Assembly: GCA_016196885.1 (NCBI GenBank)
Contig: JACPWU010000039.1
Location: 30,001-62,000 of the forward strand
Direction: 5' to 3'
DNA length: 32,000 bases
From: Chlamydiota bacterium
GTDB lineage: Bacteria > Auribacterota > JACPWU01
The stretch's first letter is position 1. Each line of letters opens with the position of its first letter. Positions 6,401 to 31,696 of the stretch are shown one piece after another. A program made the translations under genes and the position numbers. The notes below the pieces were generated by a model that made no database searches, was not told the origin of the DNA, and saw only the letters and a list, made by a program, of their open reading frames with translations.

Positions 6401-9400
6401 CCTGAAGAAATGGCCTTTATCATCCATCAAAAATACAAACTCGAGAGTCATGGAATTTCTTACGACGACGTTTTGAAACTGGCTCAAATGCAAACCCAAA
6501 TCGATCATTTGAGCCGAGAAGGCGGGTTTGACTTTTTCAACACGGACCGTTCATATCGTTTTGCCTTGAGAAATCTGGAAAGAATCGCCGAAGATTTTAT
6601 CGCCCGCGTCTCTCTCAAGCTGTCCGAAAACCAAACAATTCCCCTCCCTCGAGGGGAGGGGTTAGGGGAGGGTGAGGTCAAATCCACCCCCTCCCTAACC
6701 CTCCCCGCAAGGGGGAGGGAACTTTTCGGGAAGCCTGATGGGGGAGTTAGAGAAATTTTCCTAGAAGAAGCCTTCACGGAATATGGAACGCTTTTAGACC
6801 AGACGGATCGCAACATCCGAAAATTAGTCGGGCGAAATATTTCAAAAGATCTTTTTCAAGGGTTAGAGGCGGCTGTTATTCCTTCTTTGTGGGCTTTCTT
6901 GATCAAAGGAAAACATATTGATCCGAATGGAAGGCTTTTAGAATTCGAATCTTTGAATAAAGAAGGAGATATTATCATTTCTCCTAAGCCTGGAGAGGAG
7001 ACAAGAGTTCCCAAAAGAGTGATTTATCACCTTCTCAAAAATTCTCTGGGTCTTTTTAATCAATATTTTAATTGGGAGGGGATGGGACAATATGCTGAAA
7101 AGTTTGAACATACACAAGAGATTCTGCGGCTCAATGGTGTGGAGGTTTTGAAAAAACCTTCTGATACAGAAACCTTGGCTAATCTCATCGAGCCTCAAAC
7201 CCAGTTGCGTTCGACCGCTCTGACCCGGACTCAGGTGTTAAAGGGTTTTAGAGACGGGAAAGTGGTTGAGATCGGAGACGCTCAGGGCCAGGTGAAACAC
7301 GCACACCGATCTCGACCCGTTTTGATTGTGGGTCAATCGGGCGGAGGGAAAAGCGATATGGTGGGAGATATTGCAAGAGAGCTTCATTGGAAATACACGA
7401 GTGTGTCCCTGGGGGCGGCAACTGTCGATTCACTTATTGGTTCTTATGAATTAGATGAGGTCACAGGGGTTCTTCGTTTCCGAGAAGGTGTTTTGATTAA
7501 GGCCATGCGGGAAGGTTACTGCATTGTATTAGAAGAAATCAATATGGCAGATGCCGCGGTCATTGAGATTTTGAATGAATATTTTGATCGAGGGACATTT
7601 ACATTGCAGGAGCGAAGGGTGCAGGTAGATATTCATCTTGATTTTAGGCTTTTTGCCTCCATGAATCCAATTCAAGGAAAGATGGCCCAGAATTCAGGAC
7701 GTGTTGGACTCTCTCCCGCCTTGAGGAGCCGATTCCGTGAGGTATGGCTTCGCAGTGAGCGTACACGCGGGGAAGAATATCGCATCATGCTGGGGGGGAT
7801 TAAAAAATTTGTGGGACAGCTTTTGAAAGCGGGCACGCAGGATATTGGAGAGGTTCAGGAAAGTCTGGGGGAGGTGATTGAAAATTTAAGAGAGGGGGTA
7901 GGGACTCAAGGAACTCATCAAATGATGAGAAACAATTCAGGCGTTTTGTCTTCTTCTACAAGTGCGCAGGCCGCGGTCAGCGTTTCAACCATGAAAATGG
8001 CAACCCCTGTGGCTGGGGGTGGGAGTGGAGCTTCTGGAGGAGTAACTCAGACAGAAGATTTGGAAGGTAAGAAAAAAACGTATGTGGAAACCTTTGTTGT
8101 GGTGAGTGAAGGAAATGTCCATTTGGCGGAGTCTACTCCGGATGAGCGAGGTCAAACCCACTGGGCTTATGCTCCGGCGACGAACACGCTTTATTATCCA
8201 CCCGATGAATTGGCCACAACTCCCATCGATGAAATGGTGGGGGTTGGCATCCATGAATCCATGCACCGCTATGGAACGCGTTACTTGAGCATTTTTGAAG
8301 AATTTTTAGAGGAAAATAAACTCGCTGGAATGATTTTTAATATTTTGGAAGATGGTCGAATTGAAAATTGGGCCCGCTTGCGTTTGACAGGAACGGCGTC
8401 TTACTTAAGAAAGCTCAACGACAATAAAATCTTTAATAAGCCTATCGCCGAAATGTTTGCCTGGGAAGTCGAGATTCGGGAAGGCCCTCTGGCCGGTCAA
8501 AAAATCAAACGATCCTATTCATCCATGGTGCAAGACTTTTTTCTTTACCTGGCCAAACGTGGATCCGATTCCGATGCCAAAGAAAAAATCGCTGAAATTC
8601 TCGATATCATGGGCCAAGAATCCCAAGAACTTCGTCAAGATTTGGAAACACTCATGAATAAAGGGGTTTTTGGCGGAGCAAAGGATGAAGACATGCTTCA
8701 GAAAAAAATGAGGGGCGTTTTTTCTCTCGTACCCATCAAGACAGATGGACAGGGGCGTATTTTATTTGATCGGGATCCCACCGAGGAATACAAGGATGAG
8801 TTGGCCGAGGAGCAAGGGGTTATTATTCGAGAAGAGATGATGCCCATCGTTTATAAATGGGCCGTTCAGGATGTTCAGGAAGGCCGAGGGAAAGGTGAAG
8901 GGCAGGGTCAACCAGGAAAAGAAGGAGAGGGTGATGGGACTCCTGGCACAGGCAAAGTCAAACCGGGTAAACCCGGAGGGGGCGGCAAGCCTATTTCGCC
9001 CAAAGACTGGAAAAAAATCTGGGAATCTTTAAATCCTGAGGATAAAAGGGCGTTAGAAAAAGCCCTCAAAGAAGGTTTGGGGGACAAGGCAGCTGACCGG
9101 ACCAAATCAAATTCAAAGGATTTTCAAGAGGCTCAGAAAGACGCCACTTTAAGCGCTCCCATTTCTGAGAGAGATCGTTTGCTTAAACAGGTGGGAAACC
9201 GGATTCATGAGCTCACTGGATACCTTCGCGAGATTATTCTCAATGCGACTCGTCCCAAATGGAAACAACCCGAAAGAAGAGGGAGATTCATTGCCCGTCT
9301 TCTCCTCAATGCCATTCCCCGTGGCGCGGTCGGGAAAATGCTCTTCTTCGCCAAGCGTGAGATTCCGACCAAAAAGAATGTGACTTTTACCCTTGTCATT

Positions 9401-12400
9401 GATGCAAGCGAAAGTATGGACGATATGCAAAGGATGGATTCTGCGGTGGGTTATAACGCCCTGAAAGGCGCTTTTATCATGATGGAAACTTTAGAAAATT
9501 TGGGGATCGATTTTAATGTCAGGTGGATTGGAGATACGACAGGTTTATACAAGCGATTTAAAAATCAACCTAATCCGGAGGGAGAAAATATTCCCAACAG
9601 TTTTTCGACGCGTATGGATCGGGAAAAAATCATTCAATCCATGTACGAGTCCATCGGTCAAAAAGGGGGGACAAATGATGCGCTTGCGATTCAAGAAACG
9701 ATCAAAGATATTGAGCGCTATGGGGCTGAAAATCACTATGTAACCGTATTTACGGATGGTATGGGGACGATTCCTCAGGTTCAGGAAATTCTGCAAAAAG
9801 TTCGTGAAAACAAAGGGCGGATCGGGCGATCCAAAACTGAATTTATTGGGGTTGGACTCGGAAATGCAACCAAAATTGTCCCTGATGTTTATGGAAAAGA
9901 ATATTCCATCCATTTGAAGGATCATGAGCTTAGGGAATTACCGGTTCGAATCAAGCGCCTCATGGAGCGTTTGATCAATCGGATTTATCGAGAGGATACC
10001 ACTCGAAAAGCGCCTAGCCCTCTTTCTGGGACTTCCATGAGCGGGGCCAGTGTGGATGGGATGATTGGGCAAGGAAATGCGATTGTTGAGTTCCTAGAGG
10101 AACTCAACAGTTCAAGGTTCAAAAGTTCAAAAGATCAAAGGTTAGAACAGGAGTTTGCGGATGTATTAGACGGACATGAGGTCTATGTCTTTGACGCTCT
10201 CATCAAGGGGCCGCATGATTTTGTGCTGGGGTATCGGGATAAAGTGAATAAAAGGCTTTATGTTTCACGAGAAGTCCTTCACCGCTTGGAAGGCCGTCCG
10301 AATGTTTTACGGGAATATCTCTTTCACGAAGCCCATTGTGACCCGGATGTCGAGGGAAGCCATTATCAAACCATCGCTGAGCAGCAAAGGCTCTATCCCG
10401 AAAATTACATAGGCATGGGATATTTTAGAAATGAAGAGGGGGTTCTTCTTTATTATGCAAGAAATCCCTATCTCAATGAAATGCTTGGATTTTTATGGGA
10501 AATGATACATCCCCTTGAAAAATGGTTTCCGTTTCTGGCTCGTCTTTCTCCTAAGATTGCGAAAGGGGTGTTGGGAAAAGTTTTACGTTCAGTGATCGAA
10601 GAAGAGTTAAAGAATGAAGCACCCCGAAAATATCCTTATAAATACAGAAGCTTTTCTCAAGCCAAGTCTTCTTATGAGAAGGAGCATGGAAAGATTCCTG
10701 AAATATGTCTGAATAGGATGGAGATGCTGCCTTCTTACAGGAAGAGGATTAAACAATTTGGTTTTGAAGATATGTTGCTTTTGCTACCGAACTCTCCTGC
10801 CCGCATGCCCGAGCTTCTAAGACTACTTGAGTGTTTGGAAAAAGTATTTGGAGAGGATGTCCCTCTTTTCTGGCCAGATTTTATGCGTTTGGTTAGTGGA
10901 TCGAGGGATCGAGAGGGCTTGGACTGGAATCCAGGTCTTTTGGAAGGGCTCTTGGATTCTTTTGATGTGCGTTTACCAAGCTATTATTCTCGACAGGAAA
11001 GAAAGAGATGGTTTCAAGAAGCCGTCGATCTGAACTTACGGGCAGGAGCATACGCCTTCGATTTTTGGGAGAGAGCCATGAGGTTCAATGTACTTGGGCT
11101 TGCACTGGATCAACGACAACTCCAAGAAGTCGGAAATATTGTGTTATCTGCAAATGAGAAGTTAGGATCTATGAGAGACAAAGATTTTTTCTCTATCGTT
11201 GGAAGTTGGGGGGAAGCGTTCAAGAGTATAGATCAATTAAGGGAGGCCGTTCAGAAAATCGTTGCAGTGATGAGTCCCTCATACATTCACGATTCGGAAG
11301 CTGCGGACATTGCCTCTATATCGAGAGAATCCAGTGGTTTTGCTGTTGTCTGGAAACTCTGGAGTCGGGTTCAAGAGAGTGAAAGAGAAGTTTTAATTTC
11401 TATGGTTACCAAGATTTGGAGACTTAATATTCAGACCCCTTCTACTAAAGCAAGAATTCTAGAGCATTTCCAATCCATCGCCGATGAAAGCGGCCCGGAC
11501 GCGATTGTCGGGGATTTGGAGGCGTTGTTGGAACGCCTTAAGAAGCCTGTTGGGGATGATGAAGGGGATGTGTATGAATTAGCGACTCCATTGACAGTTC
11601 TAACTCAAGGAGGTTATTTGCCATCAACTTCTTTTTCTCAGGGAGGCTACATTGCCCAAGGGACAGAAGCCAAGGCAGAGTTTTTAGAGAATTTAGCTGC
11701 GGGGAGATATGAGTTTTGCCGAAGGAAGGATTTTGAGGAGGGTTTTAAAAAGATTTTAGAGGGTTATGAGGTTTATGTCGTTCCTGCAATTATCAAGGGA
11801 CCGGATGATTTTTTCCTGGGAACGAAGGACTTCACTCAAAGGAGAATTTATGTGACAGCAGAAGTTTTGGGAATTTTATGCCAATGGTATCGTGATCCGA
11901 AAGACTGTCGTCGTTTGATCAGCGAATATTTCTGGCATGAGGTTCATGAAGAACCTTCACCTGAGCGGCATGAGAGTCTCATTCAGGAGCAGCAAGTCAA
12001 ATTTAAGCAGAATTACACGGGTAAGGGCTACAAGAAAGGGTCTGGTTACTTGATAGATCCTCAGAAGCAAGGCAAGGTTGCCAAAGGAGAATTGGGAGAC
12101 GCCCTGTGTCATTTGATCACCAAAACCCTTCAAGGGGGGCAAACGCCTAAAGATTTCGTGAAGGATGCCTTTAAAGCCTATCGTGCGATTTATGGGAAGG
12201 AAGTCGATTTGGATCAGTGGGATAATGTTGAGGGTGCGTTGATTCCTAACCTGGATCTTTGGGTGGAAATTTTTGGCGTGAAAAGGCTTTTGGAATATAA
12301 CGCCCTTTTCAACAAAGGTTTCCTTTCCGAAGATTATTTTGAGATGTTAACGGGTCTTTCTTTTTCCTATGCATCGGGGGACCCTTTTAAAATGCTGGAA

Positions 12401-15115
12401 TGCATGGAAATGTTCGCTGACGGTGATGACAATTTAAGATCCACTGTGTATTTTTTCGACGAAAGCCTGGAATCAGTGGTTTCTTTGATCCCCAATGGTC
12501 CATCATTTAAAGCTCTCATTTTCAAGCTTATTGAACTCTCTGATGCGATCTTTCGTTCGCCCTGGCATAGTACTGGCCAAAACCGAAGGGCGTATTGGGA
12601 ATTTTTCCTTGAGATGATGAATGTTTTAAAAAAGCGAAATGTCCTCCAGGATGATGGCATGCTTATGGAATTTCTGGATGCGGTGATTGCGGTGATTCAT
12701 CAGGAAGAAGGGGCCGGGCTTCTGGCTTTTGATTTTTTTGGAGAAGGGGTGTGCGAAAGGGAGTCAGAGAATTTTCTGAGAGATGGGAGGCAATTCACTG
12801 AATTTTTCCAGCCTTGGAGCGCTGCTTTAAGTCAGTTGCCTCGAGGGGTCGAAGGGGACGATGAGTCCGAACGTGTTACGGGTGCCGTTTGGAATTTGGG
12901 TCCTGGGCCACTTTTGGAGCGAGGTCCGGTGGCCCTTGGAAGATTATGTTCTGCGACTGGAAAACTGGGTGATGAAAAATACGAGCGATTCCATGCCTTC
13001 TCAACCATTGAGGGTTTGTGGAGGGATGGAATGGATGAATATTTGGGTGAGGTGGTTGAATATTTTGAGTTACTGAAAGACGAATTGGAGGGGGATGTTG
13101 GAGTGCAATGCGCCATGCTTTTTCAGAAGTTAAGTCACTCAGCGGCTAGATTTGGAAAAGGGAGAGAGGTTTTTGAATCGCTTGCTCGTTTGCGAGAGCG
13201 TGAGAGTCGTCAGAGTTGTGTAGATTTTGTCATCGATCTTGTGCAGAGTCGGGAGACTTTTGGCCATCGAATTGCGTTGTATCTTCCCGGGCTCGCCCGT
13301 TTATGGCAATCGGAAGGTTTTGCACTGTTTCAGGAGGAAGAAGCAGAGAAAGAAAGAGGACATTATTTCGATGCAGTTGTCTGGCCTGTGATTCAAAAAA
13401 TGGGATCTAAGAGGTTGTTGCAATATTACTGGGAAGATTTGGTTGAGGCAAGTTGTGCCTCATTCCCGCGAACAGGCTTTTCGGAGAGCTCTGAGGCCTT
13501 GATTGATTTGAACGGGATTCTAGGTCGTGAATTGGACGAACATTGGCCCATTTTTATGAAGATGGCAAGGGCGGGAAACGCCTCTATTGAGGAATTTATC
13601 GTTGCCATGGCTGATGGCTTTGAGCTCTGGAGAAAGAGGAAAAAAGATTTGCTTGAGGTGCTTAAAAAACTTTATTCTCGTAGGGGTTCGCAACAAGCTG
13701 CTGTGATCGACCCTGTTATCGAGATTGTGAGCTGGGCAAAGGGTCATCCCTCTGATGCAAATCATGTGTTGAATCACCTAAAAGATATCGCCGACGAAAG
13801 CGGCCCCGACGCGATTGTAGGGGATTTAGAGGTGTTTTTGGCGAGGTTTCAGAATCCGGGTGAGGAGGATGATGCCGACCCCTATGCTTTTGCTGGACTG
13901 TCATCAGGTTCAATGGGACCGCTTTTGCTTTCTCCTCTTGGGACATTGTCTTCTGGAATTGCTGCCCCTACCGGTACTTTGGAAGGTGCTTTGACTTTGT
14001 GGATTCATTCTGAATTTAAAGGAGATGCGGAGCTTCGGGCTTATATTGGGCGAGGTTCTGCGGCCCAGGTTCTTGAAGCATTGGGATCGGCTCTTGAAAT
14101 ATATTTTGGAAGATTGAGCATCCATCTGGATCGACAGAACGAGATTTTAGGTCGATTGGCCAGTTTAGTGGCTCAAGCGCATCAAGGTGGGAAAGAATCG
14201 GACCCTCTCGCTCAACTGATTGAAGAATTTTTGGGGATGAAGGCGGCTGAACGGGGTCGCCTCGAAAGTCAGATCAGTTCTCGTTTTAGCGAGACAGGGA
14301 GTGTGACATGGTCTTTGGAACAAGACAGTTGGACTTTTAGAGAAGGGGATGAAAATCTTTCGTGGACAGATCAGGACACGGAATTTGTAAATCAGCTCAA
14401 TGAATCAAACACAGACCTTCGCGAGCTTCACTTTGTAGGACGTGAAGGTTTTAGAAATGCTCTGGGCCAATTGGCCATCAGAAGGAGGGTGATAGAAACG
14501 GATGTGTCTTTGATACAGGGGGTAGAAGCAACACTTTCTGAGGATAAAAGTCTGCAATACATCATTATTGATATAGACCTTTTAGTAGACCAGGACGGTC
14601 TTGAGCTTCGTCAAATTCTTCAAAAAATTCCAGAAGGGGTTCGTGTCATTATTTTAGGATCTGAAAATTCATCGGATCAGCGCAAAATCCTTCAAACCCG
14701 ATGGGGGATTGAGACAAATTCAAAACTTCAAGTGATTCAAGTTCCTCATCAAGAAAATAGAGGCCTAGCGGCCCTTCAGCTAATGTCAGGTGCTGTTCAA
14801 CCTTCCCAGATTCGTTTTCTAGGATGGACCGAAAACCAAAAAGAATACGGGATTGAGGCCTTGAGTCAGCGGGGAATTTCTGTTGTTCTTGGCAATAAGT
14901 CCGTGACCTTAGCTCAAATGCTTTGTGCGGCTGACACGCCAGAAAAATATCGAGCGCTGATGGAAAAACTTGAGATTTCCAAGGACGAAATTAATCTGAT
15001 GATGGCTACAATAGAGGAGGGGCATCAGGTTCTTTCACCTCCGGGCATGCGGCGTCTTTTGAATAGCCTTGATGACCTTAGGCAGTCCGAGCAAGAACGT
15101 TTGAGATCGATGTAA
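2..15115 (+). CDS. Giant multi-AAA+ (MoxR/AAA_5, dynein/midasin-like) ATPase fused to an HExxH metallopeptidase-like domain, a VWA/MIDAS domain and a ~1,700-aa C-terminal extension; 5'-truncated by the window edge
   Basis: Uninterrupted ORF from the window edge to TAA at 15113-15115 (5,037 codons, no start in the window). It has six Walker A/Walker B pairs, HESMH at 8252-8266 and MIDAS DASES at 9401-9415. Overlapping and antisense track ORFs are short and look like shadows. Confidence 0.92.
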   Translation: MRIVAEISSLAREGTGELLQEVLELYREMMGDELKDFNQLLTLLKTFIRMVNFHHDFETLVNEGRIGKRNNETYYVSLRDLSKVKEMVQAEFEAGVPLRVAARRAIQRRYYNRFLREDRSLIEKLMRRHGLLDVDEKLDYDYVFEGLEPESRNIKVYEQKKGRMVQRKGEVEEVRTGEKVPLLNIQLEKNFEGLRRDEVLNASTRRGLAQLLSALGGPAKKFFNPVFLFGITSGGKSTLARIAAKMLGVGYTRIQITAQTDEFELFGSFQPYEINISPQDAYERIQDGLARGEFIKLEEALSRLEFGEEGKLFQKLLEGHEDWAEKYHGLQGEARLKYQREILEIYLKTKVGDYLRRTAAILYKTQEGHVVSAEELAFVEVFKSLAMLMDQKMGLRFVDGRFLTAYRKGDLILLDEANLANEEMVGVLYQMLTRGYLEYQGRLIELAPGATPRVVATGNPSTDSGRNRMSEAFMNRFEIIQVEDMNPDEMADLIVDQLAVDGVNLEQDLGMTREQLIQFAEIQRSLNNLLRTGKFSNMGQEENYVFTLRNLLRIVGDVRERKAAGHPVNIETWIQEAYLEYQGILVRRDCYTPDPSGNSDYRSLRNVFSVALGYKREGKTPEETLDTLIQERFGKIEGADDAVQHRMELDGLSLEAGHSEEEVLVDELIEVESTKFIETYIAKGIRQRQAVLFVGQSGGGKTDVIANVARKTNRKYVSVSLGDATLESLIGTVEYDRREKRFKYRPGILVMAMEEGSILALEELNMAKSGILEILNEYFDEGTFTNPFTLEKVKVHPDFRLFATMNPMEGTRGANEGRTLLSPALRSRFREVWVPHEKTDDEIRTILKGKFEQLLPVEKSSTSEVTRLPENPIIPLPRWEGLGEGELKSTPSLTLPTRGRELLGQPVPGGDEDPLIENMLSFYRRYQGDFEEIRDESYYTSLRDLSRMVRVMVLHVKEHGMTLEEALPKAIHRIYGLRMTTPQAKEKYQKILSDLNIPQYQPGQIIFERDENFLHVYEVSTKSLNSPNPLNGVTPQAPLNLRGGIDGVTPQAPLNLRGGIDERGEDDKTLIAQLRIDDLQSQTASQVRSELISQGVGEDELDSRASEALDTLLSSSQLVQDPKTVAELSHLLEAFDVGEERHAKGRFNPVLFMGGTSGGKSSKVRYAALNLLGQGYTRIQFNERTDEIDLLGGYEPREVKMDFDEAYLVLTEAMKNGEWIKIKKALQVWKKGSLSSADDKAFEEEEARLGIVQANQEAMVFVQKLLQDAFKEGSNMDPELREQAHHKIINMAFLIKNGVLNVELEFKEGRFLKALRRGDVVLLDEMNLASEEIVAILYQFLLTGYLEYYDRGQGKIAKIFPGKGFKLAATANPDTYSGRNRLSEALMNRFEIHYIEDMAPSEMAEIVNRENGFEGERQTAVEKLSQFQSLLNQKMREGEFSGISSDPQGGYIFTLRNLKRIVKDERMLEEMGETSSFRELILREAFLEYSSVLGRSPENLAKLQALFKDSTEGFGIDVELPNFEFSKNADGVLSIGSIKLEEVRDEPVEEDLVEPLAAGPQTNRIRYQIAKGFLDRRRPMLVVGQSGVGKSDVIGDMARELKWKYRSVSLGNTSLEALVGTYTIDRNTKKLVYVPGILIQAMREGSILALEEINMASPALIEILNEFFDEETFTNPMTGEKESIHPRFRLFATMNPEQGLTGLNGGRNALSPSLRSRFNEVWFPENRSPEEMKAIIRQKMINRGVLEKMDFAVDEIYHVYDEYFKAVLSQKIGEDSNEGYFISPRDIAKIIDVLAVDLKNGIEPAKALQHAFERVLIYRLHSEKDRVYVQSQILKQTKKDPYTWEESETGSVVKCEGVTLGTISPEMLGDFILTDQSKTAVARILDALRTVPENAKRRFNPLMLIGDTSVGKSTMAELATRISAKPLTRIQMNQRTDESDLFGSFHPVEVTLDNTQAYEVVTEALQKKQILRIRQALEYLKISKKRITGSLGLEGDVNLDDSVLERYVQEILLKGFKEGDARSSQIFRDLAILLANGGTGIDLEFKKGLFLQAMRRGEAVLLDELNLASEDALALLYQLLTLGYIEFQGERIYPAEGFQLIVSLNPSLGYTGRNPLSEAFMDRFEIHHVREMKPEEMAFIIHQKYKLESHGISYDDVLKLAQMQTQIDHLSREGGFDFFNTDRSYRFALRNLERIAEDFIARVSLKLSENQTIPLPRGEGLGEGEVKSTPSLTLPARGRELFGKPDGGVREIFLEEAFTEYGTLLDQTDRNIRKLVGRNISKDLFQGLEAAVIPSLWAFLIKGKHIDPNGRLLEFESLNKEGDIIISPKPGEETRVPKRVIYHLLKNSLGLFNQYFNWEGMGQYAEKFEHTQEILRLNGVEVLKKPSDTETLANLIEPQTQLRSTALTRTQVLKGFRDGKVVEIGDAQGQVKHAHRSRPVLIVGQSGGGKSDMVGDIARELHWKYTSVSLGAATVDSLIGSYELDEVTGVLRFREGVLIKAMREGYCIVLEEINMADAAVIEILNEYFDRGTFTLQERRVQVDIHLDFRLFASMNPIQGKMAQNSGRVGLSPALRSRFREVWLRSERTRGEEYRIMLGGIKKFVGQLLKAGTQDIGEVQESLGEVIENLREGVGTQGTHQMMRNNSGVLSSSTSAQAAVSVSTMKMATPVAGGGSGASGGVTQTEDLEGKKKTYVETFVVVSEGNVHLAESTPDERGQTHWAYAPATNTLYYPPDELATTPIDEMVGVGIHESMHRYGTRYLSIFEEFLEENKLAGMIFNILEDGRIENWARLRLTGTASYLRKLNDNKIFNKPIAEMFAWEVEIREGPLAGQKIKRSYSSMVQDFFLYLAKRGSDSDAKEKIAEILDIMGQESQELRQDLETLMNKGVFGGAKDEDMLQKKMRGVFSLVPIKTDGQGRILFDRDPTEEYKDELAEEQGVIIREEMMPIVYKWAVQDVQEGRGKGEGQGQPGKEGEGDGTPGTGKVKPGKPGGGGKPISPKDWKKIWESLNPEDKRALEKALKEGLGDKAADRTKSNSKDFQEAQKDATLSAPISERDRLLKQVGNRIHELTGYLREIILNATRPKWKQPERRGRFIARLLLNAIPRGAVGKMLFFAKREIPTKKNVTFTLVIDASESMDDMQRMDSAVGYNALKGAFIMMETLENLGIDFNVRWIGDTTGLYKRFKNQPNPEGENIPNSFSTRMDREKIIQSMYESIGQKGGTNDALAIQETIKDIERYGAENHYVTVFTDGMGTIPQVQEILQKVRENKGRIGRSKTEFIGVGLGNATKIVPDVYGKEYSIHLKDHELRELPVRIKRLMERLINRIYREDTTRKAPSPLSGTSMSGASVDGMIGQGNAIVEFLEELNSSRFKSSKDQRLEQEFADVLDGHEVYVFDALIKGPHDFVLGYRDKVNKRLYVSREVLHRLEGRPNVLREYLFHEAHCDPDVEGSHYQTIAEQQRLYPENYIGMGYFRNEEGVLLYYARNPYLNEMLGFLWEMIHPLEKWFPFLARLSPKIAKGVLGKVLRSVIEEELKNEAPRKYPYKYRSFSQAKSSYEKEHGKIPEICLNRMEMLPSYRKRIKQFGFEDMLLLLPNSPARMPELLRLLECLEKVFGEDVPLFWPDFMRLVSGSRDREGLDWNPGLLEGLLDSFDVRLPSYYSRQERKRWFQEAVDLNLRAGAYAFDFWERAMRFNVLGLALDQRQLQEVGNIVLSANEKLGSMRDKDFFSIVGSWGEAFKSIDQLREAVQKIVAVMSPSYIHDSEAADIASISRESSGFAVVWKLWSRVQESEREVLISMVTKIWRLNIQTPSTKARILEHFQSIADESGPDAIVGDLEALLERLKKPVGDDEGDVYELATPLTVLTQGGYLPSTSFSQGGYIAQGTEAKAEFLENLAAGRYEFCRRKDFEEGFKKILEGYEVYVVPAIIKGPDDFFLGTKDFTQRRIYVTAEVLGILCQWYRDPKDCRRLISEYFWHEVHEEPSPERHESLIQEQQVKFKQNYTGKGYKKGSGYLIDPQKQGKVAKGELGDALCHLITKTLQGGQTPKDFVKDAFKAYRAIYGKEVDLDQWDNVEGALIPNLDLWVEIFGVKRLLEYNALFNKGFLSEDYFEMLTGLSFSYASGDPFKMLECMEMFADGDDNLRSTVYFFDESLESVVSLIPNGPSFKALIFKLIELSDAIFRSPWHSTGQNRRAYWEFFLEMMNVLKKRNVLQDDGMLMEFLDAVIAVIHQEEGAGLLAFDFFGEGVCERESENFLRDGRQFTEFFQPWSAALSQLPRGVEGDDESERVTGAVWNLGPGPLLERGPVALGRLCSATGKLGDEKYERFHAFSTIEGLWRDGMDEYLGEVVEYFELLKDELEGDVGVQCAMLFQKLSHSAARFGKGREVFESLARLRERESRQSCVDFVIDLVQSRETFGHRIALYLPGLARLWQSEGFALFQEEEAEKERGHYFDAVVWPVIQKMGSKRLLQYYWEDLVEASCASFPRTGFSESSEALIDLNGILGRELDEHWPIFMKMARAGNASIEEFIVAMADGFELWRKRKKDLLEVLKKLYSRRGSQQAAVIDPVIEIVSWAKGHPSDANHVLNHLKDIADESGPDAIVGDLEVFLARFQNPGEEDDADPYAFAGLSSGSMGPLLLSPLGTLSSGIAAPTGTLEGALTLWIHSEFKGDAELRAYIGRGSAAQVLEALGSALEIYFGRLSIHLDRQNEILGRLASLVAQAHQGGKESDPLAQLIEEFLGMKAAERGRLESQISSRFSETGSVTWSLEQDSWTFREGDENLSWTDQDTEFVNQLNESNTDLRELHFVGREGFRNALGQLAIRRRVIETDVSLIQGVEATLSEDKSLQYIIIDIDLLVDQDGLELRQILQKIPEGVRVIILGSENSSDQRKILQTRWGIETNSKLQVIQVPHQENRGLAALQLMSGAVQPSQIRFLGWTENQKEYGIEALSQRGISVVLGNKSVTLAQMLCAADTPEKYRALMEKLEISKDEINLMMATIEEGHQVLSPPGMRRLLNSLDDLRQSEQERLRSM
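614..1765 (+). other. AAA+ module A1 (AAA_5/MoxR-like, with large insert)
   Basis: Walker A GITSGGKST at 689-715 and Walker B LILLDE at 1232-1249. ATGNP is sensor-1-like, followed by GRNRMSEAFMNRF. An insert of roughly 130 aa, predicted helical, lies between FGSFQPYEI and FVDGRFLTAY. Lid motif is YVFTLRNLLRIV. Confidence 0.85.
2024..2940 (+). other. AAA+ module B1 (AAA_5/MoxR-like, compact) plus lid
   Basis: Walker A GQSGGGKT at 2084-2107 and Walker B variant ILALEE at 2273-2290. Also FATMNP, SPALRSRF and the lid motif YYTSLRDL. The lid is interrupted by the repeat element at 2621-2709. Confidence 0.85.
2621..2709 (+). repeat. G/C-tract palindromic repeat element, copy 1, inserted in-frame in the giant CDS
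   Basis: 89 nt, with 5 mismatches to 6638-6726. The flanks are non-homologous (B1 lid versus A3 lid). Internal hairpins are CCCCTCCC-tcgat-GGGAGGGG, a long G-arm/C-arm pair, and CTCCCC-acaa-GGGGGAG. It is translated as IPLPRWEGLGEGELKSTPSLTLPTRGREL. Confidence 0.9.
3095..3184 (+). repeat. Perfect 2 x 45-nt tandem duplication, in-frame in the giant CDS
   Basis: ggagtaactccccaggcccctcttaacctaagagggggtattgat occurs at 3095-3139 and again at 3140-3184, encoding GVTPQAPLNLRGGID twice. Each unit contains the hairpin CCCCTCTTA-acc-TAAGAGGGG. Confidence 0.95.
3371..4490 (+). other. AAA+ module A2
   Basis: Walker A GGTSGGKSS at 3461-3487 and Walker B VVLLDE at 3959-3976. Also ATANP, GRNRLSEALMNRF and the lid motif YIFTLRNLKRIV. 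The insert is homologous to the A1 insert (begins DFDEAYLVLTEAM). Confidence 0.85.
4690..5475 (+). other. AAA+ module B2 plus lid
   Basis: Walker A GQSGVGKS at 4751-4774 and Walker B variant ILALEE at 4940-4957. Also FATMNP, SPSLRSRF and the lid motif YFISPRDIAKII. Confidence 0.85.
5630..6800 (+). other. AAA+ module A3
   Basis: Walker A GDTSVGKST at 5717-5743 and Walker B AVLLDE at 6176-6193. Also SLNPS, GRNPLSEAFMDRF and the lid motif YRFALRNLERIA. The lid loop is interrupted by the repeat element at 6638-6726. Confidence 0.85.
6638..6726 (+). repeat. G/C-tract palindromic repeat element, copy 2, inserted in-frame in the giant CDS
   Basis: The offset from copy 1 is 4,017 nt, a multiple of 3, so the reading frame is the same. 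It is translated as IPLPRGEGLGEGEVKSTPSLTLPARGREL. Paralogous modules A1 and A2 have only a short loop at this position. Confidence 0.9.
7210..7765 (+). other. AAA+ module B3
   Basis: Walker A GQSGGGKS at 7331-7354 and Walker B variant CIVLEE at 7520-7537. Also FASMNP and SPALRSRFREVW. Confidence 0.85.
8070..8400 (+). other. HExxH metallopeptidase-like domain (resembles the DUF2201_N-type domain found N-terminal to VWA in MoxR partner proteins)
   Basis: HESMH is at 8252-8266, preceded by TNTLYYPPDEL...PIDEMVGVGI and followed about 25 aa later by NILEDGRIENW. From memory, this pattern matches the putative metallopeptidase domain that accompanies VWA-like domains next to MoxR ATPases. Confidence 0.55.
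8875..9000 (+). other. Low-complexity G/K/E/P-rich linker
   Basis: Translated sequence is EGRGKGEGQGQPGKEGEGDGTPGTGKVKPGKPGGGGKP. Confidence 0.8.
9371..9990 (+). other. von Willebrand factor A (VWA) domain with MIDAS motif
   Basis: TFTLVIDASESMDD carries DxSxS at 9401-9415. GGTND places Thr at 9671-9673 and VFTDG places Asp at 9755-9757. The beta-alpha alternation is typical of VWA. Confidence 0.85.
10073..10426 (+). other. C-terminal repeated domain, copy 1 (H-E-x-H-x8-H motif)
   Basis: GHEVYVFDALIKGPHDFVLGYRD...RLYVSREVL...EYLFHEAHCDPDVEGSH (motif at 10325-10363) aligns with copy 2. Confidence 0.6.
11660..12031 (+). other. C-terminal repeated domain, copy 2 (H-E-x-H-x7-H motif)
   Basis: GYEVYVVPAIIKGPDDFFLGTKD...RIYVTAEVL...EYFWHEVHEEPSPERH (motif at 11936-11971). 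Confidence 0.6.
14417..14749 (+). other. Possible divergent receiver (CheY-like)/flavodoxin-fold segment near the C-terminus
   Basis: YIIIDIDLLVDQDGLELRQILQKIPEGVRVIILGS resembles the beta3-alpha3-beta4 stretch of receiver domains. The upstream acidic pair and the beta5 Lys are not evident. Confidence 0.25.
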
Positions 15116-15119
15116 GCCA

Positions 15120-16406
15120 TTACCCTAAAACATGCCAAGGAACGGCAATGATTTTTTCACTCATTCGCACAATCTCATTCCCATTATAAATAAGAACGGC
15201 TGCTTGTGTTTCGGGGTATTCTTTCAGAAAAATTTGTAAATTTCTTGTATCGCTATACTGGGGGTTAGATGCGAGCTTGACCTCAAAGGCAATCAGATGA
15301 CGACCTTGCTCCAGAACAAAATCTACTTCTTTCCCATCCATAGTTCGCCAGTAAAACAGGCGAGGACGGGGCAGCAATAATTGGGATGTCACTTGAAGAT
15401 GTAAAAAAATTAAACTCTCAAACATAGCACCGATTTCTCTGGCTGCCTTTAAATCGTGAATGTCGCTGTAGCCGGCAAGATAAGCGCTGAGTGCGGGATC
15501 TATCCAATATATCTTGGGAGATTTCATCAAGCGCTTGGTCCGATTTCGGTGAAAGGCATTTACACGTGTGACGAGGCATGACGCCTCCAATAAATTGATA
15601 TAGCGATGAATGGTGGGCTGACTCATCGCGATGTCTCTGGCCAATGCAGATTGGTTCAATATATTTCCGGTCCTTAAGGCCAGGGCCTCCATCACGCGTC
15701 TAAAATCCGAGAGGGATTCAATTTGAGAAATTTGGCGTAAATCTCGTTCCAGATAAGTGGCGACATACCCTTCCCACCAGCGAACAATAGAATCTGGCCT
15801 CTTCAGGGTTAAAAGAGGAGGCATGAGGCCTTTGTGGATTTGTTCAATGGGGTCATGAGAGATATTGTTTTTGCCTTCATCAGGAAATTTTCCCCTGAAA
15901 ATATTTTTAATGAGTCCAGAGGGTATATGATTTTGGGTCTCACCCAGTGTCATGGGGTAGAGTGTAAAATAGACCGCTCGTCCCGCGAGCGTCTCACTCA
16001 CCTTTTCCATCAATAAGAGATTGGCTGAGCCTGAGAGAATAAAACGGTTTTTTCTCCCTCCCTCATCGACTTTTCTTTTGATGGCCAATAGGAGAGAAGG
16101 GACGCGTTGAACCTCGTCTAAAACCATATTTTCTTCACTAGATAGAAGCGCCATTGGATCTTTCTGAGCCTGGTTTAGTAGGTCATAATCATCAAAACTA
16201 AGGTAACGCCACTTAGAAAATGGCGCTTCTTTTTGCAAAAGGGTGCTCTTACCCACCTGGCGGGGTCCTGTGAGGATCACGACGGGATGATCTTTCACGG
16301 CGGTTTGTATCTCGGATGTTAGCCACCGGGGTTTGTAATATAATTCATGATCTGAATGAATATCATTCATACCTTGAATAGTATTACAAATGAGTCGATC
16401 GGTCAA
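15120..16406 (-). CDS. AAA_14/DUF4143-family ATPase (COG1373-like) with PD-(D/E)xK-like C-terminal motif
   Basis: 428-aa ORF with Walker A GPRQVGKST and Walker B MVLDEVQ. The C-terminal DGKEVDFVLE...IAFEVK is encoded at about 15276-15329. An alternative start at M13 (MNDIHSD, 16370) is possible. Confidence 0.85.
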   Translation of the reverse strand: MTDRLICNTIQGMNDIHSDHELYYKPRWLTSEIQTAVKDHPVVILTGPRQVGKSTLLQKEAPFSKWRYLSFDDYDLLNQAQKDPMALLSSEENMVLDEVQRVPSLLLAIKRKVDEGGRKNRFILSGSANLLLMEKVSETLAGRAVYFTLYPMTLGETQNHIPSGLIKNIFRGKFPDEGKNNISHDPIEQIHKGLMPPLLTLKRPDSIVRWWEGYVATYLERDLRQISQIESLSDFRRVMEALALRTGNILNQSALARDIAMSQPTIHRYINLLEASCLVTRVNAFHRNRTKRLMKSPKIYWIDPALSAYLAGYSDIHDLKAAREIGAMFESLIFLHLQVTSQLLLPRPRLFYWRTMDGKEVDFVLEQGRHLIAFEVKLASNPQYSDTRNLQIFLKEYPETQAAVLIYNGNEIVRMSEKIIAVPWHVLG

Positions 16407-16467
16407 GGTGTTAGGTTAGAAATTTGGTTAGAAATAGCCTTCTCTTCTAGAAGGTATTGTGTTTCTT

Positions 16468-17643
16468 TTACTTCAAAATAGCGTCAATTCCTTCCTGCCA
16501 GGGGAGGGCTCTTGTATGTTTTATTTTTTGGGGTTGGGGATCCCGAGACAAGAGATAGCTTTCGGTTTTATTCATCTCACTTGAGAAGGTTTCCAGATGT
16601 TTTGCATCTTTAGGATCAACATGTTTTGAGGACTTAATCTCAACAAGCGCCAAAGGCTTTCCGGGTCGCTCGATGATAAAATCAATTTCAGCTCCGTCAT
16701 GTGTTTTAAGATAAGAAAAACGAAAGTTCTTGTTGAGGTATTCACTGCGGCGTACCAGCTCTAGAAAGACAAGGTGTTCAAACGCATTTCCAAAGGCCGA
16801 AGTCTGTTCAAGAAGGAGGACGGTTAACGTCCGATCTAAGGCTCGCTTAACCCCTGTGTCAAAGAAATAAAATTTAGGGTTGGTCAGTTGTCGTTTTCTC
16901 AAGGAGGAGTGATAAGCAGGAACCAAAAATCCCAGCAGTGTATCTTCTAGAATTTGGAAATAAGACTGAACTGTTTTTGTGTCGACACCTACATCACGGG
17001 AAATCTTGGTGTAATTAATAATCTCACCATTCATTTGTGCAGCCACTTCTAAAAAATTTCCGAAGGGTTCTAGCTTGCGGATAAGTTGTTCATTCCAAAT
17101 TTCTTCCTTTAAGTAGGTCCGGCTATAGGCCTCCAAGTATCGGGTTTTCATCTCTTTTTTTGGAAGACACCAGGGCTCAGGCAACATTCCGTATTCCAGG
17201 GCCATTTGAAGATGGGAAGGGTGGGTGCCTGCCTCAAGAAAAGTGAGAGGAAATAGGTGATAGACAAACGCTCGTCCTGCCAGAAGATTGGGTGCGCCCC
17301 GTTTCAATTTTCGAGCGCTTGAACCTGTCATGATAAATTGAAGGGGAGTCCCTTTACGTTTACGTTCCTCTAACTTTCTGTGTATCACATCCAAAAGGCG
17401 TGGAACTTTTTGAATTTCATCGATAACAATGCGTTTACAGGACTGAGGAAGCTCATCCACCATTCGTCCTAACCTCTCGGGGTCTCGAAGAAAAAGATTT
17501 TCCTGTTCAAGGTCCAGAAGATCAATAAAAATGGTATCTTCTTTTTTAAAGCAGGCATGCAAAAGAGAGGTTTTCCCTGTGCCTCTTGCACCCAAGAGAA
17601 AAAAGCTATGTTTTTGTGGGAGCTTTAATATTCTATGGACCAT
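16468..17643 (-). CDS. AAA_14/DUF4143-family ATPase, second divergent paralog
   Basis: 391-aa ORF with Walker A GARGTGKTS and Walker B IVIDEIQ. The C-terminal DGAEIDFIIE...LALVEIK is encoded at about 16633-16689. Confidence 0.85.
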   Translation of the reverse strand: MVHRILKLPQKHSFFLLGARGTGKTSLLHACFKKEDTIFIDLLDLEQENLFLRDPERLGRMVDELPQSCKRIVIDEIQKVPRLLDVIHRKLEERKRKGTPLQFIMTGSSARKLKRGAPNLLAGRAFVYHLFPLTFLEAGTHPSHLQMALEYGMLPEPWCLPKKEMKTRYLEAYSRTYLKEEIWNEQLIRKLEPFGNFLEVAAQMNGEIINYTKISRDVGVDTKTVQSYFQILEDTLLGFLVPAYHSSLRKRQLTNPKFYFFDTGVKRALDRTLTVLLLEQTSAFGNAFEHLVFLELVRRSEYLNKNFRFSYLKTHDGAEIDFIIERPGKPLALVEIKSSKHVDPKDAKHLETFSSEMNKTESYLLSRDPQPQKIKHTRALPWQEGIDAILK

Positions 17644-17744
17644 ACTCCATAATATTAGCGAAAATATGGAGTAGGGTCAACGACCATTTTTTGGGAACGT
17701 AAGAAGCAGATAATGTATTTAAAAGCGTGTCTTTTGGAAAGGTG

Positions 17745-17867
17745 GCGGGTCCTGCCGCTCGATAGCCCCACCGACGGCATCGGTCTTGTTAGAGTCGTCT
17801 GGTTAATGCAAAGCCGATGTCTCGACCTGCTGGCGCTCGGTGGGGCGCCCCATCGAGCGTCACCCGC
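17745..17867 (+). ncRNA. Candidate structured RNA or DNA element of unknown class (four nested helices)
   Basis: Hand-paired helices are 17745-17750/17862-17867, 17756-17763/17852-17859, 17765-17774/17837-17846 (10 bp) and 17776-17784/17813-17821 (with G:T pairs that are wobble only on the + strand). It is locally GC-rich in an AT-leaning intergenic region. Confidence 0.3.
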
Positions 17868-17908
17868 ATGAATAAAAAGGACACACTTTTATACTGGATT
17901 AAGGAGCA

Positions 17909-18074
17909 TCCCAAGGACAGAGATAGAAAATGAGAACCGAGACGCGACAGGTTGGCCCAGATGGACTTGAAGAAAATTCGAGGCATACCTGCAAGGTATG
18001 TCGAGATTTTCTGAAAGTTCAGATGGGTCAACCTGTCGCGTCTCGGTTCTCATTTTCTATCTCTGTCCTTGGGA
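17909..18074 (+). repeat. 166-nt long hairpin (46-bp perfect outer stem, ~35-bp imperfect inner stem, 5-nt loop)
   Basis: 17909-17954 is the exact reverse complement of 18029-18074. The inner arms 17955-17989 and 17995-18028 pair with three tandem G.A/A.G mismatches and three G:T pairs. The loop tgcaa is at 17990-17994. Confidence 0.9.
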
Positions 18075-18123
18075 GCAGGATCGTTCTTCATCTTTTACGC
18101 TTTAAATGATATAACCGTCCCTT

Positions 18124-18837
18124 ATGAAGCTTTCTAATGTAACGATTGTATTGGTTGAGCCCAAGAGTCCGGGTAATATCGGTTCTGTGGCCCGGGTGAT
18201 GAAAAATACAGGCCTTGAGAATCTGATTTTAATTTCTCCTTGTGATTGGCACGATTTAGAGGCCAAGAAAATGGCCGTGGGAGATTTATCTCTGATTGAA
18301 AAGGCGAAAGTTTATTCTGATCTGAAAGAAGCACTCACCCCTTTTCGATGGACAGTCGCCACAACACGCAGGACCCGGCGCAGATTTGATCAGGTTTTGA
18401 CCCCTCGGGAAGTGGCCCAGAAAATTAAGGAGTTTCCTTCACGTTCCAAAGTGGCACTGGTGTTTGGCCCTGAAGATCATGGACTGAGCAATCCGGATTT
18501 GAGCTTATGTCACAGCCTTTCCACCATTCCTTCTTCGCAAAAATTTCCCTCGCTCAATTTAGCTCAGGCGGTCATGGTCTATGCTTATGAAATGTATGCT
18601 GCGGCTTCCTGGGTGAGCAAAAAAAAGCGCAAAGACATTGCAGGGGTTAAAGAGTTAGAGGGCATGTATGATCATTTGGAAAAAATGCTTTTTGAAATCC
18701 AATACTTTACGCGTGGAAAACCAGAAACGTTGATGGAATCGATTCGTAATTTTCTCAATCGGGCTGATTTAAGTTCTCGGGATGTGAGGATCTTGCGAGG
18801 CATTTGTTCCGTGGTTCAAAAGAAAGTGAAGAGATAG
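18124..18837 (+). CDS. trmJ: SpoU/TrmH-family tRNA 2'-O-methyltransferase, TrmJ-like
   Basis: 237 aa. The N-terminus IVLVEPKSPGNIGSVARVMKNTGLENLILISP closely resembles the TrmJ N-terminus. It also has VFGPEDHGLSN and SLNLAQAV motifs. Confidence 0.8.
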   Translation: MKLSNVTIVLVEPKSPGNIGSVARVMKNTGLENLILISPCDWHDLEAKKMAVGDLSLIEKAKVYSDLKEALTPFRWTVATTRRTRRRFDQVLTPREVAQKIKEFPSRSKVALVFGPEDHGLSNPDLSLCHSLSTIPSSQKFPSLNLAQAVMVYAYEMYAAASWVSKKKRKDIAGVKELEGMYDHLEKMLFEIQYFTRGKPETLMESIRNFLNRADLSSRDVRILRGICSVVQKKVKR

Positions 18838-25310: not shown

Positions 25311-25443
25311 AGAAATCCAAAATCCAAAAATCAAAATCCAAAATGACAGTCCAAAAATCAAAATTTTTCAATGCAACAACATCAGGGACATTTTGGATTT
25401 TGGTGTGTCATTTTGATTTTTGATGTTTGATTTTTGGATTTCT
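25311..25443. repeat. Heptad-arm inverted repeat E3 between convergent genes (different loop)
   Basis: The left arm (25311-25364) is built of AAATCCA/AAAATCA heptads. The right arm (25390-25443) is built of ATTTTGG/TTTTGAT heptads. The 25-nt spacer is unrelated to the E1/E2/E4/E5/E7 loop. The right arm encodes the last ~18 codons of the PAP2 ORF. Confidence 0.85.
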
Positions 25444-26425: not shown

Positions 26426-26586
26426 AAAATAGTTTTAGGCATATGCACTTGATTCCCCTTTGTAGTCGCCCGATTCATCGGGCAAACCCATGCAAGGGGC
26501 ACAGCCCCATGAATGGGGCGACTACAACTTCTTGCCATGGCGCTTGTTATCTAAGGGGAATCAAGTGCATATGCCAAAATAGTTTT
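26426..26586. mobile_element. MITE-like nested element: 11-bp direct repeats, 23-bp terminal inverted repeats, REPIN-like core
   Basis: AAAATAGTTTT occurs at 26426-26436 and 26576-26586. ggcatatgcacttgattcccctt (26438-26460) is the exact reverse complement of 26553-26575. The core at 26461-26526 is listed separately. Confidence 0.7.
26461..26526 (+). repeat. REPIN-like doublet (two GTAG-headed palindromes in inverted orientation), copy 1
   Basis: tGTAGtcGCCCGAttcaTCGGGC ... GCCCCATgaATGGGGCgaCTACa. The 10-bp closing stem is tgtagtcgcc/ggcgactaca. Confidence 0.7.
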
Positions 26587-27706: not shown

Positions 27707-27831
27707 TGCTATGAAAGTGAGGCTCATTTTGTAGTCGCCCCATTTATGGGGCTGCCGTGTGCCCCTTGCATGGATTGCCCGATGAATCGGGCGACTACAA
27801 AAAAAGCATGATTGGGAGAACTTTCATAGCA
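27707..27831. repeat. REPIN-like element, copy 2 (inverted relative to copy 1) within a 12-bp outer inverted repeat
   Basis: The core at 27730-27799 is the reverse complement of the 26461-26526 family, with small indels. The outer inverted repeat is tgctatgaaagt (27707-27718) / actttcatagca (27820-27831). Confidence 0.7.
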
Positions 27832-30941: not shown

Positions 30942-30945
30942 TAAT

Positions 30946-31062
30946 ACCGTACATCGTGCATCGTACTTCGTACTTCGAATACCGTGCAATCGCAATTTCG
31001 TTGTTACGATGTTCGATGTTCGCTGAACGATGTACTGCCTTTAAGTACGATGCACGATGCAC
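30946..31062. repeat. Heptad-arm inverted repeat E6 (long, different centre)
   Basis: Left heptads are ACCGTAC ATCGTGC ATCGTAC TTCGTAC TTCGAAT. The outer stem gtacatcgtgcatcgtactt (30949-30968) pairs with aagtacgatgcacgatgcac (31043-31062) at 19 of 20 positions. The inner part is made of GATGTTC-type heptads. Confidence 0.8.
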
Positions 31063-31083
31063 TGTCTTTAAGAGGAGAGGTCT

Positions 31084-31551
31084 ATGAAAAGAGTGTTATC
31101 CATTTTACTGGTGATGGCTGGGCTTCTGGCTGCCTCAGGAGTTTACGCAAAAGAGATTGCGGTGATTGTGAATAAGGAGAATGGGACGAGCAACCTTTCG
31201 ATGTCTGAGCTCTCCAGAATTTACGAGGGGAAGATGACGAGTTGGTCGAATGGTTCTCGTATGATGGTTATCAATCGGCCAACGGCTTCCCCGATCCGTT
31301 CGGCTTTTTATCGAACGGTGTTGGGGGTCGAGGCCGGCAAGCAATTTTTTCAGCCGGGGAGTCCCGTGCCTTTTAAGACGATGATTCAAGAATCGGATAC
31401 GGCGACGAAACGCATGGTGAGTCAAATGCCCAATGCAGTGGGCTATATCTATGTTGATGCGTTGGATGATACGGTCAAGGCCGTTTCGATTGATGGGGCC
31501 TCTCTGACACCCGATGATATTAGCAGTGGAAGATATGCTTTGAAGGAATAG
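31084..31551 (+). CDS. PstS-like (PBP_like_2) periplasmic substrate-binding domain protein, short
   Basis: 155 aa with strong RBS aggagagg. The signal peptide ends VYA|KE. IAVIVNKENGTSNLSMSELSRIYEGKMTSW is typical of phosphate-binding-protein-like domains. Confidence 0.7.
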   Translation: MKRVLSILLVMAGLLAASGVYAKEIAVIVNKENGTSNLSMSELSRIYEGKMTSWSNGSRMMVINRPTASPIRSAFYRTVLGVEAGKQFFQPGSPVPFKTMIQESDTATKRMVSQMPNAVGYIYVDALDDTVKAVSIDGASLTPDDISSGRYALKE

Positions 31552-31558
31552 GGAAAGA

Positions 31559-31634
31559 CAGTCGTGAGTGGTGAGTCGTGAGGGGTGAGTTTTATAGGTA
31601 TGATTTTTCACTCACGACTCACCCCTCACGACTG
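31559..31634. repeat. Heptad-arm inverted repeat E7 with conserved loop
   Basis: Left arm is cag TCGTGAG TGGTGAG TCGTGAG GGGTGAG. Loop is TTTTATAGGTATGATTTTT (31590-31608). Right arm is ca CTCACGA CTCACCC CTCACGA ctg, followed by TTTTAC. Extra CTCAC units follow at 31645-31657. Confidence 0.85.
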
Positions 31635-31696
31635 TTTTACTCTTACTCACCCCTCACGGCAGTTTTTACGGTTTTAGAAGAAAGGAGCTTTTGACC

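Follow-up and report, generated by a model that had tools for sequence, protein, structure and literature searches.

The window (the whole stretch of 32,000 nucleotides that was analysed) was found to contain a 166-nt imperfect palindrome at positions 17909–18074, on which the sequence itself, a repeat finder and a pair table of the fold agreed. This hairpin lies inside a 480-bp spacer between two divergent genes, an AAA_14/DUF4143 ATPase gene (16468–17643, − strand) and a SpoU-family methylase gene (18124–18837, + strand), and era is located directly after the methylase gene. On the left side of the spacer, two tandem AAA_14/DUF4143 ATPase genes were found at 15120–17643 (− strand). A giant ORF at 2–15115 (+ strand) with repeated AAA_5-type ATPase matches runs off the left end of the window; it is longer than 5037 amino acids here and comprises 6849 amino acids in contig JACOUD010000041 of GCA_016178005.1, in which the same organism was assembled independently. 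The window was found to be free of tRNA and tmRNA genes.

The palindrome TCCATAATATTAGCGAAAATATGGA at 17646–17670 lies 5′ of the first AAA_14 gene and overlaps a predicted −10 box. It was kept upstream of AAA_14 homologues with 80% identity on unrelated contigs (L028 and L029), and because of this conservation it is likely to be an operator. The AAA_14 family itself looks horizontally mobile, with near homologues in MAGs of KSB1, Omnitrophica and Deltaproteobacteria. Immediately 5′ of the hairpin, a GC-rich structured domain (17712–17895; approximately 55% GC vs. approximately 42% around it) was shown to be closed by AAAAGCGTGTCTTTT and AAAAGGACACACTTTT, with long-range pairings inside. This domain folds to −81.5 kcal/mol on the + strand vs. 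−74.4 kcal/mol on the − strand (z = −4.8), it showed no Rfam match, and a 23-mer from it was absent from IMG/VR. The domain may represent another palindromic element or a novel RNA.

Between the hairpin and the methylase gene, a likely promoter was recognized by inspection, which was absent from the output of the promoter scanner:

18087–18126, + strand: likely SpoU promoter and ATG; TTCATC-17-TGaTATAAC with the −10 box at 18110–18115 and the ATG at 18124

The TGaTATAAC motif (18107–18115, by inspection) ends 8 nt from the SpoU ATG, and the end of the hairpin is separated by 12 nt from the putative −35 box. The same promoter layout (TTGATT-18-TATAGT-7 nt-ATG) was found in one relative (L023). 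Because the likely promoter is placed between the hairpin and the start codon, the hairpin is probably located outside the SpoU leader. Predicted −10 boxes at approximately 7–8 nt from the start, without a Shine-Dalgarno sequence, were seen for AAA_14 (17643), for SpoU (18124) and for the SpoU gene of the same relative (L023, approximately 4001). As these −10 boxes are so near to the start codons and the Shine-Dalgarno sequence is absent, leaderless mRNAs are suggested for the lineage, and the SpoU mRNA is likely to be of this type.

The hairpin and its immediate flanks were divided into the following features, with pairings taken from the pair table:

17906–17908, no strand assigned: left flanking GCA, a weak candidate for a 3-bp target-site duplication, with its partner at 18075–18077
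17909–17954, + strand: outer 5′ arm and candidate left terminal inverted repeat, 46 nt, perfect complement of 18029–18074
17955–17990, + strand: inner 5′ arm (pair table and folds) with three GA dinucleotides, three wobble Gs and the bulged T17978
17991–17993, + strand: apical GCA triloop, closed by a stem of 9 bp (17982–17990 with 17994–18002)
17994–18028, + strand: inner 3′ arm (pair table) with the partner GA dinucleotides and the wobble Us
18029–18074, + strand: outer 3′ arm and candidate right terminal inverted repeat, 46 nt, unchanged in contig JACOUD010000028 of the second assembly
17960–61/18022–23, 17969–70/18013–14 and 17980–81/18003–04, + strand: tandem 5′-GA-3′/3′-AG-5′ mismatches (pair table)
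17955:18028, 17964:18019 and 17983:18001, + strand: G:T pairs with the G in the 5′ arm throughout (pair table)
17978, + strand: single bulged T (pair table)
Candidate element end sequence: TCCCAAGGACAGAG...

The initial annotation of this DNA had described a 46-bp perfect stem within a 166-nt hairpin, which was confirmed in the window by the sequence, the repeat finder and the pair table. The repeat finder reported arms of 69 nt with 91% complementarity (17909–17977 and 18006–18074), and the pair table contains 72 Watson-Crick pairs. The inner arms do pair as described, and their lengths, first given as 35 and 34 nt, were recounted as 36 and 35 nt, a count that varies with the placement of the loop. 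Each of the three GA sites is a symmetric 2 × 2 loop between Watson-Crick pairs. On the 5′ arm, neighboring sites are 9 and 11 nt apart, and on the 3′ arm they are 10 and 9 nt apart, so that a spacing of about one helical turn holds and the value of 10–11 bp proposed at first was slightly generous (9–11 measured). A G:U wobble is found two to five bp away from each GA loop, and the bulged T is one base pair away from a GA site. The three G:T pairs are all G:U on the + strand, as had been claimed, and A·C on the − strand, where the inner stem carries C·U/U·C and A·C mismatches instead. The statement that the flanks share only GCA was also borne out (17906–08 and 18075–77); a 6-bp flank repeat, GGAGCA, is obtained only when it is allowed to overlap the end of the right arm, i.e., when the last three arm bases are counted. 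Chance alone would produce a flank match of 3 bp in a few per cent of cases.

Folding of the hairpin as RNA, as proposed in the initial annotation, yielded −135.3 kcal/mol for the + strand (z = −23, none of 200 shuffles being as good) and −120.3 kcal/mol for the − strand, and the + strand RNA is favored by 15 kcal/mol. With DNA parameters, the values were −80.6 kcal/mol for the + strand vs. −76.3 kcal/mol for the − strand. A Monte Carlo simulation was performed in which nine random substitutions were introduced into a perfect palindrome with 81-bp arms in 2 million trials. All nine substitutions fell within the inner 35 of the 81 positions in 2.9e-4 of the trials, at least six G/A mismatches were obtained in 2e-5 of them, and at least two tandem GA/AG sites in 0 of the 2 million. 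The claim that the pattern differs from random decay of a palindrome and that it is the + strand that folds is supported by the pair table, by this simulation and by the strand asymmetry of 15 kcal/mol. The structure of the hairpin is real and non-random. Its unusual part is the orderly inner stem, with three in-phase tandem G·A loops and strand-consistent wobbles. Because all non-Watson-Crick positions are stable on the + strand and destabilizing on the − strand, and because the GA loops are in phase, the order of the inner stem implies selection on the folded + strand as a single strand, RNA or ssDNA; as judged from the sequence, the selected form may be either.

If the hairpin functioned as duplex DNA, either as a cruciform or as a palindrome bound by a protein, it could insulate the divergent promoters of AAA_14 and SpoU from each other or serve as an operator there. 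Its position would suit this role, as it lies in a spacer of 480 bp between two divergent genes and ends 12 nt 5′ of the SpoU −35 box. However, duplex recognition leaves the one-strand bias of all mismatches unexplained, the mismatched center would be expected to hinder extrusion of a cruciform, and neither of the flanking gene families was found to have the hairpin elsewhere. We consider such a function in duplex DNA very unlikely.

No second full copy of the hairpin was found in the 32-kb window or in approximately 190 kb of fetched loci (blastn, word size 7–9). In exact-pattern scans, a 46-mer of the arm was absent from the GTDB species genomes, a 30-mer of the arm and a 26-mer of the inner stem were absent from IMG/VR, and a 23-mer of the arm was absent from the JGI metagenomes. 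A pattern representing the structure signature (AGAT..TGAA..CGAG on both arms) gave no match in IMG/VR or in the JGI metagenomes. Positions 17700–18100 showed no match to plasmids and phages in a distant-mode blastn search, and blastn against the same two sets did not reveal any insertion sequence whose ends match those of the hairpin. The further copies that the initial annotation had proposed to look for were found in none of these sets, neither in the window and the fetched loci nor in the GTDB, IMG/VR, JGI and plasmid/phage sets, and within this range the hairpin element clearly does not appear to be a widespread family. ORFs of 54–80 amino acids within the palindrome had no homologue among approximately 15 billion predicted proteins: the 80-amino-acid ORF gave no match in 5.8 billion proteins, the ORF of 59 amino acids matched only an unrelated low-complexity tandem-repeat protein among 1.84 billion representatives, and an exact look-up of the ORF of 54 amino acids was empty. 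The literature search returned nothing relevant on hairpins with periodic tandem G·A pairs. For RNA families, no Rfam 15 family was detected at the gathering threshold in the whole window. In a permissive Rfam search of 17600–18200, the best match was MIR2118 with 39.9 bits vs. a gathering score of 85, and such weak matches to miRNA precursors reflect the hairpin shape only.

The strand preference could also point to a locus-specific structured ncRNA on the + strand, either alone or as the 3′ domain of a transcript of approximately 360 nt that includes 17712–17895. RNase III would cut the outer stem of such an RNA and release an inner hairpin of approximately 70–80 nt, in which the G·A loops would form a protein- or metal-binding face. 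Each of the nine non-Watson-Crick positions is compatible with RNA pairing on the + strand but not on the − strand, the + strand RNA is stabler by 15 kcal/mol, and the upstream domain (17712–17895) also favors the + strand. RNase III needs roughly 20 bp of uninterrupted dsRNA, a length that is exceeded by the 46-bp duplex and reached in silico by 46 Watson-Crick pairs and five more that include one G:U. On the other hand, Rfam gives generic hairpin similarity only, no homologue was found in the collections searched and the hairpin is not conserved in relatives (see next paragraph), the promoter scan showed no convincing promoter upstream on the + strand, and the GC-rich domain is missing next to the hairpin in JACOUD010000028. 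An ncRNA of this kind is regarded as unlikely.

The closest named relative by SpoU protein was a “Chlamydiae bacterium” MAG with 66% identity, and a SpoU-based scan of the GTDB genomes yielded only relatives with ≤43% identity. Four relatives with 55–66% SpoU identity showed the gene order Aldedh-thiolase-patatin (− strand) followed by SpoU-Era (+ strand); in one of them (L024), this order is unchanged apart from two additional small genes on the + strand that separate patatin from SpoU. In the three relatives in which patatin and SpoU are adjacent, their spacer is approximately 65–95 nt. None of the four contains a hairpin upstream of SpoU, and the comparison of the intergenic region in relatives, which had been suggested for detecting covariation, found the hairpin missing at the orthologous site. 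The left neighbors in the window, i.e., the giant gene and the two AAA_14 genes, differ from those in the relatives, and the hairpin is therefore located at a gene-order break and is lineage-specific. On the other side of the comparison, the AAA_14 homologues with 80% identity on unrelated contigs have only approximately 35 nt of operator-like upstream sequence in common with the window, and their contigs contain neither the GC-rich domain nor the hairpin. From these comparisons the hairpin appears to belong to neither flanking gene family and would not be an ancestral regulatory leader. The specific RNA or cruciform function suggested in the initial annotation found no support, as there is no Rfam match, relatives have no hairpin and the likely SpoU promoter lies 3′ of it.

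In the independent assembly GCA_016178005.1, the locus was found split over contigs JACOUD010000041 and JACOUD010000028 (L001). JACOUD010000041 stops at window position 17786, inside the GC-rich domain, and the join present in the window is not reproduced there. JACOUD010000028 starts with 71 nt that are foreign to the left flank of the window, followed by the hairpin from window position 17910 on. The point of divergence corresponds to the edge of the palindrome, with identity starting at its second base, and this copy of the hairpin is not preceded by the GC-rich domain. The 71-nt flank showed no significant similarity to the window, its left flank and its reverse-complemented right flank included, or to any fetched locus. 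The 122 nt at 17787–17908 are present in neither contig end of GCA_016178005.1. Within the hairpin, JACOUD010000028 is identical to the window throughout the inner stem, loop and right arm. Its left outer arm has CTCAA where the window has CCGA (a substitution and an indel), which results in a small internal loop, an outer stem of 29+16 bp and a folding energy of −124.8 kcal/mol. Because this left arm varies, the perfection of the 46-bp outer stem is not universal.

The perfect outer stem of the window could have been made by an assembler collapsing both arms, and the joining in the window of two contigs that are separate in GCA_016178005.1 may reflect either strain variation or misassembly in one of the two. 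More generally, a partial assembly artefact would imply that the true left arm is imperfect and that the arms were merged via k-mers common to both in the de Bruijn graph, or that a mis-join occurred at the palindrome. The differing left arm and left flank of JACOUD010000028, the stop of JACOUD010000041 at window position 17786 and the fact that long inverted repeats break short-k assemblies, as with a Logan contig that stops inside a palindrome at 31550–31643, all fit this explanation. It is nevertheless very unlikely in our view, since two independent contigs agree completely in the right arm, the loop and the inner stem, GA and G:U features included, and an artefact would yield perfect and not patterned pairing. 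The Logan contigs of these samples are, moreover, short and fragmentary throughout, so that little can be concluded from where they end. For this reason, the Logan contig ends near 17723 and 17774, which had first been taken for possible repeat boundaries, were discounted.

The two left contexts fit a discrete repeat present in two places, and a strain rearrangement at the element would fit them too. The alternative context of 71 nt rests on one contig start, which could represent a chimeric contig end or a strain rearrangement. It is also conceivable that the hairpin is a recombination or transposition site for ssDNA, with the + strand hairpin extruded on the lagging strand or during transfer, and that it marks the edge of a rearranged or acquired segment comprising the giant gene, the two AAA_14 ATPases and the GC-rich domain. 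The non-canonical pairs and the one extrahelical base are strand-specific, DNA parameters likewise favor the + strand, tandem G·A pairs are generally known to be stable in DNA too, and the hairpin is located at a gene-order break with an alternative left flank that begins at the palindrome edge. Against this stands that no HUH or tyrosine recombinase, TnpA, TnpB or integrase was detected among the window ORFs scanned or listed, that attC core sites are lacking, that the known hairpins for ssDNA recombination are much shorter and less perfect, and that the asymmetry with DNA parameters is small (4 kcal/mol). Such a site is improbable here.

We tentatively prefer, at somewhat less than an even chance, to regard the hairpin as a palindromic element that resembles MITEs, is lineage-specific and present in few copies, and is under sequence constraint in its folded, single-stranded form. 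The element has terminal inverted repeats (46 bp in the window), and it is small and non-coding (166 bp, with ORFs without homologues). No transposase domain was found among the window ORFs scanned or listed. A MITE had been given as the alternative in the initial annotation, and this part of it gained the only positive comparative evidence, i.e., the second left flank and the presence of dispersed palindromic repeats, against which stand the single full copy found in the sets searched and a candidate duplication of GCA only. A neutral MITE does not explain the orderly inner mismatches. Among the bacterial palindromic repeats and MITEs, the element would most likely be a new member, set apart by the unusual order of its inner stem.

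As a MITE-like element without coding capacity, bounded by the 46-bp terminal inverted repeats, it would have entered a permissive site 12 nt 5′ of the SpoU core promoter by insertion or recombination, with the outer arms as putative recognition sites for mobilization or recombination. Its sequence would have been shaped by selection on the folded + strand and not on duplex DNA, and the three sheared-type tandem G·A pairs would share one helical face, in phase. A transcript in the + direction would form a rod, of which the perfect base of 46–51 bp would be an RNase III substrate and the inner 35 bp, interrupted every 9–11 bp, may resist cleavage or bind protein. Mobility, transcription and processing of the element are what we infer from its structure and context.

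A dispersed palindromic repeat of 68–72 bp was detected in the window at 26460–26527 and 27729–27800, in opposite orientation and with approximately 92% identity. The repeat consists of TTGTAGTCGCCC..GGGC arms around two small hairpins, which differ by compensatory G/C swaps. These two copies are proven to be a genuine dispersed REP/MITE-like family. The copy at 26460–26527 is enclosed by a palindrome at 26434–26579 (27-nt arms, 96% complementary) in a divergent intergenic region. AT-rich low-complexity intergenic palindromes with units of the AAATCCAAAA type were found at 25311–25443 in the window and at 1298–1442 and 2817–2930 in the relative L023 (66% identity), and they may represent a terminator style typical of the lineage. 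Additional intergenic hairpins at 30943–31068 and 31550–31643 contain short internal repeats (CGTGAGT and GTACGATGCAC units). The latter begins at the stop codon of a PBP-like gene and is 9 kcal/mol stabler on the transcribed strand; it is the palindrome inside which the Logan contig stops. From this sampling, palindromic intergenic elements appear to be common in the lineage.

If MITE-like, the hairpin is a further example of a palindromic element confined to one lineage, here that of an uncultured PVC-type bacterium, and it would serve both as a warning for assembly and annotation (contig breaks and a gene-order break) and as a marker of genome plasticity. If the order of the inner stem reflects RNA processing or a role as recognition platform, the stem would represent a new structured-RNA design. 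A rod-shaped functional RNA or ssDNA of a type undescribed in bacteria is conceivable, in which trimming of the 46–51 bp base by RNase III frees the inner hairpin and the G·A loops on one face form a periodic dock for proteins or metal ions; it would be a bacterial counterpart of a pri-miRNA-like precursor, maybe carried on a mobile palindromic element. We regard this more specific proposal as quite unlikely.

The hairpin was compared with several known types of structured elements. It resembles kink-turn motifs in its tandem 5′-GA-3′/3′-AG-5′ pairs between Watson-Crick pairs, and the contexts UGAA and CGAG are YGAR contexts that favor sheared pairs. A kink-turn was rejected, as the loops are symmetric 2 × 2 loops without a 3-nt bulge and the only bulge is a single T. 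A retron msr-msd was rejected on the basis of the downstream gene, which is a SpoU methylase, and of the neighboring ORFs, in which no reverse transcriptase domain was found. 6S RNA, SRP RNA and ribozymes were rejected because no Rfam 15 family reached the gathering threshold, and an inverton because the sequence enclosed by the arms is palindromic as well and a recombinase is lacking in the vicinity.

Like integron attC sites, IS200/IS605 ends and the CTX phage attP, the hairpin is an imperfect palindrome with mismatches and an extrahelical base that are sensible on one strand only. Unlike it, those sites are shorter, have defined core motifs and are found beside a recombinase. By inspection, the R″/R′ core sites (RYYYAAC/GTTRRRY) of an integron attC were not seen at the stem base, and no integrase was found among the ORFs scanned or listed. 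An end hairpin of IS200/IS605 was also rejected, as the hairpin is approximately eight times longer and no TnpA or TnpB domain was found among the window ORFs scanned or listed. With RNase III processing stems (rRNA, phage T7; pri-miRNA-like rods) the hairpin shares a long unbroken basal duplex with internal loops higher up that could limit cleavage.

Compared to the palindromic MITEs Correia/CREE, ERIC/IRU of enterobacteria, RUP and Nezha, the hairpin showed no sequence similarity, and it was found at one locus and in one alternative context. Its inverted repeats of 46 bp are longer than those of Correia (approximately 26 bp). Membership of the Correia/CREE family, which is marked by a 26-bp inverted repeat, a TA duplication and an IHF site, was rejected, the flanks being GCA and not TA, and the arms are presumably unrelated to the Correia arm consensus. 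We know of no description of regularly spaced tandem G·A loops in Correia/CREE, ERIC/IRU, RUP or Nezha. Bacterial MITEs have been reviewed (PMC3184786). According to PMC2649163, the Correia/CREE family is restricted to Neisseria and consists of inverted-repeat elements beside promoters, the RNA hairpins of which are bound or cut by RNase III; effects of CREE on neighboring genes are described in the same source and in PMC3184786. The hairpin in the window is similar to Correia/CREE, ERIC/IRU, RUP and Nezha in its size class (100–170 bp), its terminal inverted repeats and its lack of genes, as well as in being intergenic, near a promoter and, over its entire length, one long hairpin.
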